A stretch of 64,000 nucleotides of DNA, taken from sequence record ON286975; one strand, 5' to 3'. The number at the start of each line of letters is the position of its first letter. Positions within the stretch are counted from its first letter, which is position 1. The notes under the pieces are model-generated. The model was not told where the DNA came from. It saw only the letters and a list, made by a program, of their open reading frames with translations, and did not search any database. The position numbers and the translations under genes are program-made. This document shows, one piece after another, positions 43,958 through 64,000 of this stretch. This stretch comes from Escherichia phage I29.

Positions 43958-44842
43958 TTATTTCCCGTTAACTTTGTTGTAGTTTCCCTGCTCAGATGGG
44001 ACTATGGTAGAAGGTCTTCCATATTCCTGATAATACCAATCCGCAGCCGATTGGGTAACACCGTTTTCATCTGTCCACATCATAGATTTGTATGGCTGCC
44101 ACTCCTCTGCAGCGTTTGTGGATGCAGTGTCTGCGAATGCTCCTGTGTCCCTCTTGTTACCTACGTTACTACCATTCTTACAGTCGTTGACAGCGCCTTT
44201 TTGTTGGGTCTTGCCTACTTTCTTAGGATTGCTGTATACAGTTGCATTAACAACCTTATTCAAGTAGAATGTGCGGAACTCTGTAAGTTCTACATCAAAC
44301 ACCATTGCAGCGCCTTCACCAACAGACTTGTTGGCAGAAAGACTGGTTATGATGTAGTTCTCAAGAAGTCTCTCCTCGGTAACCAAAGAAACCAACTGGC
44401 GCTTATTAATGATCTCAGTCAAAGCCTCCAGTGCAGCGCCCGGTCGCATAGATGCTGCAGGGTTTTTAGAGTCAGTATTCCTGTCAATGTAGTTTTGCTC
44501 ATAGATTATATGTGGAGATGTATTTACCCTGCCAGTAAAAGAAAATACACCATCTTTAATTACAGCGTGGTCTGACAGGGTAGATTTATCTTCCACCGCA
44601 AACCCAGTCTTATCAACAGAATGTTTGAAAGAGTAATTCTCAACCTGATCGAAGATAATGGCAAGATCGTTAGTAAAGTTTTTACCCTTCATCTCCGTAT
44701 TGCGACCACCATAGTTAAGACCGCTGACAAACATAGTATACTTTACATCGCTTTCAGTTTGCTGCTCTGCCTTTTCAGCCTTTGGAGATTTAACCTCTTG
44801 AGGCTTGTACAGGTCTTTTTCATCAACTATATTGCTTGGCAT
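43958..44842 (-). CDS. tail/baseplate protein, 294 aa
   Basis: First gene downstream of tape measure gene. Confidence 0.4.
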   Translation of the reverse strand: MPSNIVDEKDLYKPQEVKSPKAEKAEQQTESDVKYTMFVSGLNYGGRNTEMKGKNFTNDLAIIFDQVENYSFKHSVDKTGFAVEDKSTLSDHAVIKDGVFSFTGRVNTSPHIIYEQNYIDRNTDSKNPAASMRPGAALEALTEIINKRQLVSLVTEERLLENYIITSLSANKSVGEGAAMVFDVELTEFRTFYLNKVVNATVYSNPKKVGKTQQKGAVNDCKNGSNVGNKRDTGAFADTASTNAAEEWQPYKSMMWTDENGVTQSAADWYYQEYGRPSTIVPSEQGNYNKVNGK

Positions 44843-60763: not shown

Positions 60764-60862
60764 GGTGCTAGGTGATGGAATCGAACCACCTATGTATTCA
60801 ACGACTACCTCGTCTATTTTCAGGATTAAAAATCCTCGCCCTTGCCAAAGGGCTTACCTAGC
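60764..60862 (-). tRNA. atypical tRNA-like gene (possible anticodon UUU, not resolved)
   Basis: Good acceptor stem, D arm and T arm, but 30-nt insert between anticodon arm and T arm; CCA not encoded. Confidence 0.4.
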
Positions 60863-61427: not shown

Positions 61428-61766
61428 TTAGCTATTGCTAACAGGTTGTATTTCTGTGGTAAATGGCATAAAAGGTGCTGGTTTTTCAGCCTCTTCTACT
61501 ACCACCTCTTCCTCTTCACCAAACATCTCATCATATTCTTCCTGCATTCGGTCTGCCTTATCAAGAACATACTCTGCAATGCTTTGACGAATATTTTGTT
61601 TGGTTTTCGGGTCCAACATCAGCTCTCTTAAAACTTTGTGAGCTTCTGGAACCATCGCTATAAAAGATTCCTTCATATCAAGGATGTTCTTCTCTAGCTG
61701 AATGGCGTTGGACTCCTCTTTCAGAGGTCTGCCTCTACGGCGACGCTTTTTAGTTGTATCCGCCAT
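61428..61766 (-). CDS. small basic protein with AT-hook-like motif
   Basis: ATG 61766 with GGAGG SD (ORF-track start 61886 lies in non-coding DNA); N-terminal KKRRRRGRPLK; acidic C-terminus. Confidence 0.5.
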   Translation of the reverse strand: MADTTKKRRRRGRPLKEESNAIQLEKNILDMKESFIAMVPEAHKVLRELMLDPKTKQNIRQSIAEYVLDKADRMQEEYDEMFGEEEEVVVEEAEKPAPFMPFTTEIQPVSNS

Positions 61767-61823: not shown

Positions 61824-62110
61824 GTTCGCCGCAGGGTGGTATTCCCTGCGACTTGTCCAGCGTCCTGGACCAGAAAGACCCAACAAGTGGGTTACCAGAG
61901 CCCATTACCGCACTTTGGCTCGACCTTATTACAGGTTGGCTGGGGTCACATCGTCATGTGCTGGCTGCCCCTACCATTTTAAGTGTGGTGCACTATCAAG
62001 CCCTCTAAGGGGAACTCAGCCTTCTCCGAACCCTGTTTCAAAGCATCCGGAGATAAAGCCATCAAATTCATCTTTAAATTGGATATTCATCATGATACAC
62101 GAAAACAACC

Positions 62111-62429: not shown

Positions 62430-62639
62430 TCAACAGATTCCGGCCTTATCCTTCCTGTCTGCGTATTCTTTAATCGCAACCTCATCTGCATTAGTGACCA
62501 GGTCTTCAAAGTAACTCTCAAGCTCCTCGTCAATGTCAGGAGACCAGCTCTTTTTCCTGTCAGTGTGAATTGCAGACTTGTTGAACTTATTACAGTTCTT
62601 TGCTACCGGGTTGTTCATTAAGCGCTCCTCAGCGTTCAT
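62430..62639 (-). CDS. hypothetical protein, 69 aa
   Basis: ORF overlapping upstream stop. Confidence 0.4.
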   Translation of the reverse strand: MNAEERLMNNPVAKNCNKFNKSAIHTDRKKSWSPDIDEELESYFEDLVTNADEVAIKEYADRKDKAGIC

Positions 62640-63207
62640 AGTAAATCTTATTTAACATTACCTCATCCTTTGCAGAAAGGATATCAAGATATGCATCACC
62701 AAATCTTCCTGCAACAACCTCTGCATGATACATCACTTCGTTAACATCGTCAAGAGTGATAACCGGATGACCATATCTTTCTGAATATTGTCTCAGGGTG
62801 CGATGTAACGAGTCGTCATCATATGCAGACTTTTTAATATCACAAACACGACGAATAGCCTTGATGTCGAAAAAACCTGTGCGATACCACCCAAGAAAAA
62901 GGTTTCGTGCAGTGTCAACATCTACATTGATACCATCAAGAACCTTATCTACAAGATAGCTGTCATCCTTTGGACCAGCGTCCTTAGTGCGAATGTAGTT
63001 GCCATCTTTTCCAGGCGACATCTCCTTCTCATCCCCAACCTGCATGCCATCATTTGGCGGTGTTAGCCACTTATCCGGATGCTTACGATCACGAGCGTTA
63101 GAATGATTACGCTGGAAACCGGGCTTCCACTTGAAAGTTTTCTCCATCTGTTCTTCATTCTGATAACGTTTTGCAATCTTTTCACGGTCATCTTTGCGTG
63201 AACCCAT
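62629..63207 (-). CDS. hypothetical protein, 192 aa
   Basis: ATG 63207 preceded by GAGGAGG; preceded by ~350-nt GC-rich leader. Confidence 0.5.
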   Translation of the reverse strand: MGSRKDDREKIAKRYQNEEQMEKTFKWKPGFQRNHSNARDRKHPDKWLTPPNDGMQVGDEKEMSPGKDGNYIRTKDAGPKDDSYLVDKVLDGINVDVDTARNLFLGWYRTGFFDIKAIRRVCDIKKSAYDDDSLHRTLRQYSERYGHPVITLDDVNEVMYHAEVVAGRFGDAYLDILSAKDEVMLNKIYYER

Positions 63208-63711
63208 AGCTGCCTCCTCTTCAAGTTATAGAAAAACTAACTGTATCGCTTTGTAACGAGCTTTTCTATCAAACTGGTGCGATTGCATTACCTGGTATAG
63301 TTTATATAGCTGTGGAGCGATTTAGGGGCCTTCTTGTCAGTTTCCACACATAAACTTCATCCAAGCTCGCGCGGGAGACTCTCAACCGACTCCTTACGGC
63401 GCTGGCAAGCTTTCGTCGGTGGTCCACATCAGTGCTCGGCCTTTGGCCTGCGCTATCGCTTCGCTCCCACACATGTTAACAGACCTGTATGTATGAACTT
63501 CTGTTATTGTGTGCACCAAAGAGGCCCGGCATCTCGCCCCTCGTAGGCGAGTGCCAATGAAGGGCCGACACTGCCCATAGTAAGTAATAAATTTAAAACA
63601 TGGTACTTAGGATCTAGTATATTCTACATAAGTTAAGTATATGTACTTAGTACCATAAGTACTAGATCTTTTATTTTTTTATTATTTAGTTATTTTAGTT
63701 ATATTCTTTAT

Positions 63712-63794
63712 GTGTCCGTATCACGGACAGCTAGTGTCCGTATTACGGGCAGATGTGTCCGCGTGACGGACAGTAGTGTCCGTATCACGGACAG
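63712..63794. repeat. four tandem 19-bp palindromic sites GTGTCCGTATCACGGACAG
   Basis: Units at 63712, 63734, 63755, 63776, spaced 21-22 bp; each a 7-3-7 dyad TGTCCGT-N3-ACGGACA; units 1 and 4 identical; degenerate fifth copy near 63801. Confidence 0.85.
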
Positions 63795-64000
63795 TTAATA
63801 GTATCCGTTCCATGGCGAACATAAAACATACGAATCCTTATAGTACAGATATTTAAGTTTTTACTGGTCTAACCAGTTGTTGACATCCGAATAACTTCTT
63901 CTGGTGGCAAAACTTTGGAAAATGTGCATCTTTTACCTCTCCCTTGTGTGGATGTTTCAACCACTCCTGCACATTCTAAAGTTTTAACGCACGCTGCTGC

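Follow-up and report, generated by a model that had tools for sequence, protein, structure and literature searches.

What is the role of the GC-rich, apparently non-coding region that separates an array of palindromic repeats from the gene for a 192-amino-acid (aa) protein in Escherichia phage I29? The question arises in a window of 64,000 nucleotides (nt) of this phage (sequence record ON286975), an rV5-like coliphage of the genus Vequintavirus, in which the segment 63100-63700 is matched by 118 phage records at 90-99.7% identity and the minus strand carries all genes across 59.7-64 kb. A first-pass annotation had proposed that 63208-63560 might be a structured 5' leader, resembling a riboswitch or attenuator, or else an independent small RNA. 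The analysis described here retains one half of that proposal, as the region is structured, non-coding, selectively kept and placed on the strand of the 192-aa gene, and abandons the other half, a riboswitch or attenuator of that gene. What emerges is an undescribed folded element, present once in each phage genome and again in small Escherichia coli plasmids, and the reading that we tentatively prefer is that of a cis-acting, origin-associated fold on the gene-sense strand, which may serve as a priming or helicase-loading signal or as part of an origin transcript.

The compositional anomaly is real, since 63300-63550 has 50-58% GC, compared with 22-33% upstream and about 40% in the flanks. 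Both hairpins singled out in the first-pass annotation also exist: CTCGCC...GGCGAG forms the apical stem of an interrupted 15-bp hairpin, H1, and GGCC-TTT-GGCC is one of the mini-hairpins of a conserved segment that we call M3 (Table 1). Counting hairpins does not beat chance, because neither the whole 393 nt (z = -1.8 on the minus strand and -1.3 on the plus strand) nor the conserved core domain (z = +0.2) folds better than shuffled sequence. H1 itself folds at -28.1 kcal/mol with z = -3.0 against shuffles and accounts for 87% of the ensemble. The case for structure is thus one of conservation and covariation, thermodynamics alone being insufficient.

In an alignment of up to 12 phage copies, including the most divergent one on the IMG/VR contig L003 (82% identity in the 192-aa protein), H1, M3 and the core are conserved, with diversities of 0.011-0.034. 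H1 and the 64-nt core are about as conserved as the second codon positions of the 192-aa gene, and the spacers drift like its third codon positions. The variable hairpin H2 appears dispensable; a natural 18-nt deletion removes its 5' arm in Murica and in O157 typing phage 5, and in L003 it carries one compensatory change (A-U to C-G). The difference in diversity between blocks and spacers, together with the natural loss of the H2 arm, indicates that the element consists of selected blocks separated by free spacers.

Table 1. Features around the folded element, in window coordinates, with nucleotide diversity among the aligned phage copies and distance to the divergent copy L003.
Feature	Coordinates	Strand	Diversity	Distance to L003	Details
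Winged-helix gene (116 aa), 3' part	63868-64000	-			cut by the window end, full gene to ~64218; mapped from EmilHeitz L001:3769-4119
Four palindromic repeats	63712-63797	.			17-19 bp, TGTCCGTATCACGGACA, spaced 21-22 bp; family D1; candidate iterons or operators
AT-rich stretch	63575-63711	.			22-31% GC; short inverted repeats I6 and I7; candidate unwinding and/or promoter-operator region
H1, 15-bp interrupted hairpin	63523-63566	-	0.011	0.044	stems GGCCC/GGGCC, GGCA/UGCC and CUCGCC/GGCGAG
H2, variable hairpin	63468-63513	-			CACACA..AACAGA / UCUGUU..UGUGUG
Linker plus H2			0.083	0.35	
M3, conserved segment	63430-63467	-	0.034	0.068	mini-hairpins GCGAAGC (63458-63464) and GGCCAAAGGCC (63438-63448)
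Core domain	63366-63429	-	0.032	0.078	AUGUGGACC, then helix S1 enclosing invariant GAAAGCUUGCCAGCGCC-GNRA-GGA, then invariant GAGUCUCCCGCGCG (63368-63381)
Tail after the core, fast-evolving	63290-63365	-	0.146	0.38	76 nt, 40 of 76 columns variable; second TGTGTGG at 63344-63350
Leader before the 192-aa gene	63225-63289	-	0.038		nearly invariant 65 nt; same in L003 except the loop
Shine-Dalgarno (SD) sequence and 192-aa gene	62629-63219	-			SD GAGGAGG (63213-63219); function of the protein unknown
192-aa gene, codon position 2			0.017	0.052	
192-aa gene, codon position 3			0.128	0.33	

The covariation comes from H1 and from helix S1 of the core. In H1, which also has a 6-nt internal loop (UUCAUU), a bulged A and the apical loop UACGAGG, 15 of 15 pairs are intact across five distinct sequences, and two pairs have changed on both sides from G-C to U-A, so that the phage stems GGCA/UGCC and CUCGCC/GGCGAG read GUCA/UGAC and CUCUCC/GGAGAG in the plasmid. 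In S1 (ACCGAC, 63415-63420, with GUCGGU, 63385-63390) all six pairs are intact in seven distinct sequences, with three double changes (phage ACCGAC/GUCGGU to plasmid GCUGCC/GGCAGC) and G.U pairs in two phage lineages. This helix encloses an invariant 24-nt segment whose tetraloop is GUAA in some phages and GGAA in others, a GNRA loop in either form, and in plasmid CP134895 the helix is replaced by UCCGGAU/AUCCGGA with a different loop, the flanks AUGUGGA and GGAGUCUCCCGCGCG being kept. In total, five base pairs have changed on both sides between phage and plasmids and none is broken. Compensatory substitutions and conservation above the neutral level together make this a structured, selected nucleic-acid element, with covariation support that is genuine, if shallow. 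The fold is assigned to the gene-sense (minus) strand because of its wobble (G.U) pairs. By sequence, either RNA or single-stranded DNA may form the fold, because transcription and the presumed replication fork run the same way and would fold the same strand. A core pseudoknot (GGAG/CUCC, GCG/CGC) is possible, as suggested by a loop stretch complementary to the invariant GUCUCC in each of three lineages, the match being 4-5 nt and not significant. Two further proposals were discarded: long-range helices pairing UGUGGGAGCG with CGCUCCACA and GGAC with GUCU are contradicted by uncompensated variation, and a likeness of CCGGAAGGAGGCAGCAAAG to the 4.5S RNA of the signal recognition particle finds no match to the model of that RNA, the phage copy diverging exactly there.

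The same comparisons bear on whether the region encodes protein. The first-pass annotation saw no plausible open reading frame (ORF), and this agrees with the relatives, in which the annotated small frames are not kept. Automatic annotation calls a 56-aa (63302-63472) and a 31-aa (63476-63571) coding sequence on the minus strand in several records, and the 18-nt deletion and a 3-nt insertion found in relatives are in frame, both of which would be expected if these frames, or a 70-aa ORF on the plus strand, were real genes. However, the L003 copy has different stops, with an earlier end of the frame, and opens a different ORF of 65 aa, a 1-nt indel inside H1 of the plasmid copy disrupts one of the annotated frames, the paired substitutions are non-conservative for amino acids yet preserve base pairs, and the carefully curated Murica record is empty here. 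We therefore regard small proteins as a very improbable explanation.

A riboswitch or attenuator acting on the 192-aa gene is not supported, on several grounds. When all 4227 Rfam families were scanned with cmscan at E <= 10, nothing was returned for 63208-63560 except a chance-level hit to rli43 (22 bits against a gathering score of 100), so that the region matches no described riboswitch class, and the scan of two plasmid copies returned nothing. No terminator-like site was found in 62500-64000, including the interval between the element and the 192-aa gene, and there is neither a terminator/antiterminator arrangement nor a helix sequestering the SD sequence. The conserved blocks stop about 150 nt before the SD sequence, with the fast-evolving tail and a separately conserved leader hairpin intervening, and the same blocks are present in plasmids that have no 192-aa gene and in which the strong promoters, of sigma-70-like type, are on the downstream side of the element, not upstream. 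As a controller of the 192-aa gene, the leader immediately before it is a likelier candidate than the GC-rich blocks; this leader contains an 11-bp A/U-rich hairpin (AUAGAAAAGCU, 63259-63269, with AGUUUUUCUAU, 63228-63238) and is absent from the plasmids. The 192-aa protein was found only in Vequintavirus, and its match to PHROG 12226 (unknown function) is as uninformative as the Pfam and PDB searches, which returned no match. Within the tail, the motif GCCCCTAAAT (63320-63329) is common to phage and plasmids. A 19-mer that starts in the tail, CAGGTAATGCAATCGCACC (63276-63294, minus strand), recurs reverse-complemented (GGTGCAATTGCATTACCTG) at the equivalent plasmid position (L006:1385-1403); it is centred on the palindrome GCAATTGC and may be a protein site on duplex DNA, but it varies among phages.

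How widely the element is distributed was followed with covariance models and pattern searches. Models of the core (R1) and of H1 (R2) each find one copy per phage genome, and R2 finds one more in plasmid NZ_CP020521, so that the element is single-copy, with one per 140-kb phage genome and one per plasmid. No relatives outside Vequintavirus and small E. coli plasmids were found in viral contigs, metagenomes, genome contigs or other genera. A conserved-word search of viral contigs yielded one true relative (L003/L005) and a chance match in a terminase gene, a metagenome scan yielded six loci (four phage copies, one of them the L003 contig, and two plasmid-like contigs), and the exact pattern gave 0 matches in genome contigs. 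Gapped-pattern matches (48 in GC-rich bacteria and 7 viral) were all dismissed as chance, none having the S1 helix. Neither 4MG (Seunavirus) nor ECGD1 (Justusliebigvirus) has a counterpart of the element in its phosphoesterase neighbourhood, where the arrangement is a different one.

The plasmid copies were revealed by a sensitive search of 5426 complete E. coli genomes, in which pieces of the element occur in four small plasmids, and a plasmid collection and the metagenome scan added further copies (records L011, which is NZ_CP020521.1, L008, L009, L010, L007, L012 and L014, including two metagenome contigs). The plasmids with the element are circles of 13-14 kb, and one 39.6-kb record matches at three places. 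M3 is missing from them and other hairpin modules occupy its place, modules that are shuffled among plasmids; when these other modules were searched in phages, the core alone matched any phage, and only in Vequintavirus. The one plasmid annotated in full, NZ_CP020521, encodes major head, neck/tail-completion, baseplate and tape-measure proteins, a Rep-like winged-helix protein with weak matches to phrog_428 and phrog_391, and small helix-turn-helix proteins; its baseplate protein is 54% identical to that encoded at window 44156-44713, and no terminase or portal was recognised in its annotation. The element is 84-87% identical, in patches, between phage and plasmids, whereas the structural genes that they share have only about 40-54% amino-acid identity. 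In the plasmid it is located between iteron-like repeats with AT-rich palindromes and an operon containing the Rep-like gene, with two strong sigma-70-like promoters downstream of it and not upstream. Short words were also noted in both partners. In a 13.9-kb plasmid contig the octamer TGTGTGGG is present in 11 copies, where 0.28 would be expected (L012, L011), and in the fully annotated plasmid every copy points away from the iteron region and often forms one hairpin arm with CCCACA. The phage heptamer TGTGTGG is not enriched genome-wide, with two copies within the element (63467-63473 and 63344-63350, minus strand) and another at 63945-63951 (plus strand).

The surroundings of the phage copy form a context that the first-pass annotation missed. 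A 116-aa helix-turn-helix protein encoded beside the palindromic repeats matches PHROG 12838, 'replication initiation protein' (5e-80), and Pfam HTH_36, with weaker matches to phrog_8102, phrog_428 and phrog_270 of the same description, and the initiator-like gene, the repeats and the AT-rich region of an iteron-type origin are all present, by annotation, sequence and composition, respectively. In L003, five different palindromic repeats GATACATATTTGCATCAGAT stand beside a divergent initiator-like gene (28% identical; L003:1819-2380). Protein and repeats are both replaced there and were therefore exchanged together, the flanking genes and the folded element being kept; this is the behaviour of initiator-iteron cassettes, though repressor-operator cassettes do likewise. 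The neighbourhood may thus be considered a candidate phage replication origin. In the complete relative EmilHeitz, the cumulative GC-skew minimum is 1.5 kb from the element, at a divergent gene switch.

From this arrangement we infer a module in the order initiator-like gene, four palindromic repeats, AT-rich stretch and folded element. The initiator would bind the repeats and the AT-rich stretch would open, after which a fork or a transcript would travel leftwards. The minus strand could then fold into H1 and the core, so that invariant loops are presented on stems of unconstrained sequence, and a replication protein, possibly a phage primase-helicase of the T7 gp4 type or a component of the host primosome, would read the fold as a site of priming or helicase loading, as with single-strand initiation (ssi) signals. 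Alternatively, the same fold might work within an origin transcript. If the AT-rich stretch is the origin, the folding strand would, by the geometry and the G.U evidence, be the lagging-strand template of the departing fork. Plasmids with capsid and tail genes that keep the fold beside their own iterons could use the same protein during phage infection. The origin-associated fold is favoured because it explains why, in two replicons that otherwise differ, the element adjoins repeats and an AT-rich region, and because it explains the single copy, the downstream position of the plasmid promoters and the C-GAA-G and GNNA mini-hairpins. Mini-hairpins of these types are stable in DNA, as known from work on d(GCGAAGC). 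The bona fide single-stranded origin of phage G4 also bears a GAAA-capped hairpin.

Several points weigh against an origin-associated fold and keep our preference tentative. The PHROG name is an annotation, and the winged-helix protein could instead be a repressor whose operators are the repeats. GC skew was discarded as independent evidence for an origin, as it tracks gene orientation; the authors of the rV5 genome paper could not place the origin either, and the skew changes that they saw, one of them at 66.7 kb, coincide with changes in the direction of transcription (PMC3606486). The double changes in the stems derive from one deep split between phage and plasmids plus one further plasmid variant, and therefore represent few independent events. 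The phage element is almost certainly transcribed, because it lies inside a co-directional gene block without a terminator, and RNA accommodates GNRA loops, cUUCGg loops and G.U pairs no less readily than DNA does. Resemblance to the G4 origin is not significant, with only chance-level 8-10-mers in common and no match of R1 or R2 in the G4 genome. Finally, the primase-helicase of the phage looks T7 gp4-like, with a DnaB_C domain, and primases of this type recognise trinucleotides, not hairpins.

The gene layout brings in a competing account, in which the element is a cis-regulatory leader RNA whose promoter would lie in the AT-rich region or upstream of it and to which a phage or host factor would bind. 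The wider layout is supplied by EmilHeitz, where the GC-rich region sits 1.6 kb into a 53-kb co-directional block, in the order polynucleotide kinase, phosphoesterase, the 116-aa helix-turn-helix protein, the GC-rich region, the 192-aa gene, small genes, transfer RNAs (tRNAs), spanins, large terminase, portal and all structural genes. Such an RNA would act on the long downstream part of this block (192-aa gene, tRNAs, lysis, terminase and structural genes) by processive antitermination, processing or stabilisation, and in the plasmids it would let the tail and replication operon respond to the factor of the helper. Several observations are consistent with it: the element has the strand and direction of all downstream genes and no internal terminator, its sense strand has G.U pairs and loops of the GNRA and cUUCGg types, and RNA hairpins that bind proteins typically have invariant loops on stems that covary. 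Moreover, the phage palindromic repeats could be operators of the adjacent helix-turn-helix protein, and in NZ_CP020521 the element is preceded by three palindromes and a weak promoter-like site. On the other hand, no sigma-70 consensus promoter was found upstream of the element in the phage, the strong plasmid promoters are on the wrong side of it, there is one copy per genome although four transcription units have been proposed for rV5 (PMC3606486), no Rfam relative exists, and between the conserved blocks and the gene there is a 76-nt tail that evolves fast. We rate a leader RNA second, a little below the origin-associated fold.

The sharing of the element between phage and plasmids raises the question of what connects the two. 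It is possible, and we put it forward as a tentative proposal, that virulent rV5-like phages have plasmid-borne satellites and that the plasmids found here are an undescribed family of these, in which the folded element would be the cis-acting handle that captures a function of the helper, be it replication priming, packaging or late expression; no literature was found on these plasmids or on a satellite-helper relationship with a virulent coliphage group. If this were true, the element would be a new class of structured nucleic acid defined by a phage-satellite pair. A trans-acting non-coding RNA engaged in phage-plasmid conflict, for example as a decoy or sponge for an RNA-binding protein, seems unlikely; one partner might have copied the RNA from the other in order to interfere with it or to sense it. 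Such an RNA would account for the greater similarity of the element than of the shared structural proteins and for the shuffling of hairpin modules among plasmids, and it has a precedent in the same phage group, as the RNA antitoxin mimic pseudo-ToxI comes from PhiTE, a phage placed among the rV5-like viruses (PMC3475682). Yet a promoter and terminator that would bound an RNA are missing, as are tandem identical repeats of the ToxI type, and complementarity of 12-13-mers to phage and plasmid sites is at chance level among the matches listed, self-antisense matches included. Three compensatory changes around an invariant loop also argue for long co-maintenance and not for recent copying. A type III antitoxin mimic of the pseudo-ToxI kind was rejected, the element having no tandem near-identical repeats of about 36 nt and its modules differing in sequence from one another (compare PMC3475682).

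Packaging offers another way to connect the partners, since plasmids with a capsid gene and no recognisable terminase or portal would have to be recognised by the terminase of their helper and would for that purpose carry its packaging (pac) region. In P4 and in cos-type phage-inducible chromosomal islands (PICIs) the non-coding sequence common to satellite and helper is indeed the packaging site. PVP-SE1 and PhiTE, both rV5-like, are reported to be terminally redundant and circularly permuted, which makes the existence of a pac site likely (PMC3475682). The element is single-copy and lies about 4 kb upstream of the large terminase TerL in EmilHeitz coordinates and about 1.6 kb upstream of the gene for a 112-aa basic protein with a weak match to a small terminase. 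Nevertheless, recognition of duplex DNA by a small terminase does not predict nested helices, bulges, G.U pairs or compensatory changes, no phage record among the matches listed starts at or near the element, as judged by match positions, and the assignment of the small terminase is weak, so that we consider a pac site improbable. The 112-aa protein (window 61431-61766, minus strand) has an N-terminal KKRRRRGRP motif and an acidic tail; its match in the PDB is to a small terminase subunit (7joq, E = 0.06), and these phages have no annotated small terminase.

Other features of the neighbourhood deserve mention in their own right. A second GC-rich, ORF-free island at window 61832-62040 (minus strand) is better conserved than its flanks (93% identity in L003) and is followed downstream by a strong promoter of sigma-70-like type, from which the 112-aa gene and the tRNAs would be read; the island has no Rfam match and a fold z of -0.3. 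At about 61901-61943 (minus strand) lies the 43-nt non-coding sequence GCCAACCTGTAATAAGGTCGAGCCAAAGTGCGGTAATGGG, which is 90-97% identical to unannotated intergenic sequence of about 870 T4-like phages; the T4 copy (L085:1504-1543) is between denV and regB, about 25 nt upstream of the promoter-like TTGACT...TATAAT that precedes regB, so that unrelated myoviruses share this sequence. A tRNA-like gene of 97-99 nt at 60764-60862 (minus strand) is reported by ARAGORN as tRNA-??? with a four-base anticodon (atcc), scores just 35.5 bits in Rfam and is annotated as tRNA-Lys in EmilHeitz, and it may hold an insertion or intron. Outside the window, EmilHeitz has 2.4 kb without an annotated gene at 94,635-97,082 (L080:44635-47082), where two gene blocks converge; this interval falls at the maximum of cumulative GC skew and may be what the genome map of the rV5 paper shows as a 'non-coding' box.

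The rV5-like phages are widely used for therapy and typing, and for them the analysis provides a concrete candidate for an origin module and an adjoining folded element that has covariation support and no Rfam family. That it also occurs in small plasmids with capsid and tail genes of the rV5-like type points to virulent coliphages of this group as helpers of satellites, and the element is the sequence most likely to mediate the relationship between phage and plasmids, perhaps as the handle by which the plasmids exploit the phage.

A comparison with known systems places the element among several well-studied types of cis-acting sequence. The cis sites of satellites and helpers, such as P4 cos, which equals P2 cos, and PICI cos, are likewise non-coding sequences better conserved than the proteins; they differ in being read as duplex DNA by terminase and in showing no base-pair covariation, and the plasmids described here are candidate satellites. 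The leader RNAs lambda nut boxB and HK022 put resemble the element in their invariant loops, stems of free sequence and position early in a long transcription unit, downstream of an operator-like array, but the element is single-copy and much larger, belongs to no known family and contains no boxA/boxB-like sequence, and terminators for it to override have not been identified. The phage neighbourhood is like an origin of the lambda type, in which four palindromic iterons bound by the O protein are followed by an AT-rich region, as it has four palindromic repeats of about 19 bp, an AT-rich stretch and an adjoining winged-helix, initiator-like gene. In lambda, however, the O gene contains the iterons and there is no conserved GC-rich folded domain after them, and the protein here has only 116 aa; this likeness is known from sequence. 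The ssi signals (the G4 complementary-strand origin, the R1/R100 G sites and ssiA/ssiB of RSF1010) differ from the element, which is longer (about 200 nt of conserved blocks), lies within a transcribed gene block and is not significantly similar to the G4 origin in sequence or by model. They are strand-specific multi-hairpin DNAs of about 40-150 nt that lie beside an unwinding region and are read by primase or primosome. Like the element they bear GNNA- or GAA-capped mini-hairpins, and ssiA and ssiB of RSF1010, like the element, stand beside iterons and an AT-rich segment.

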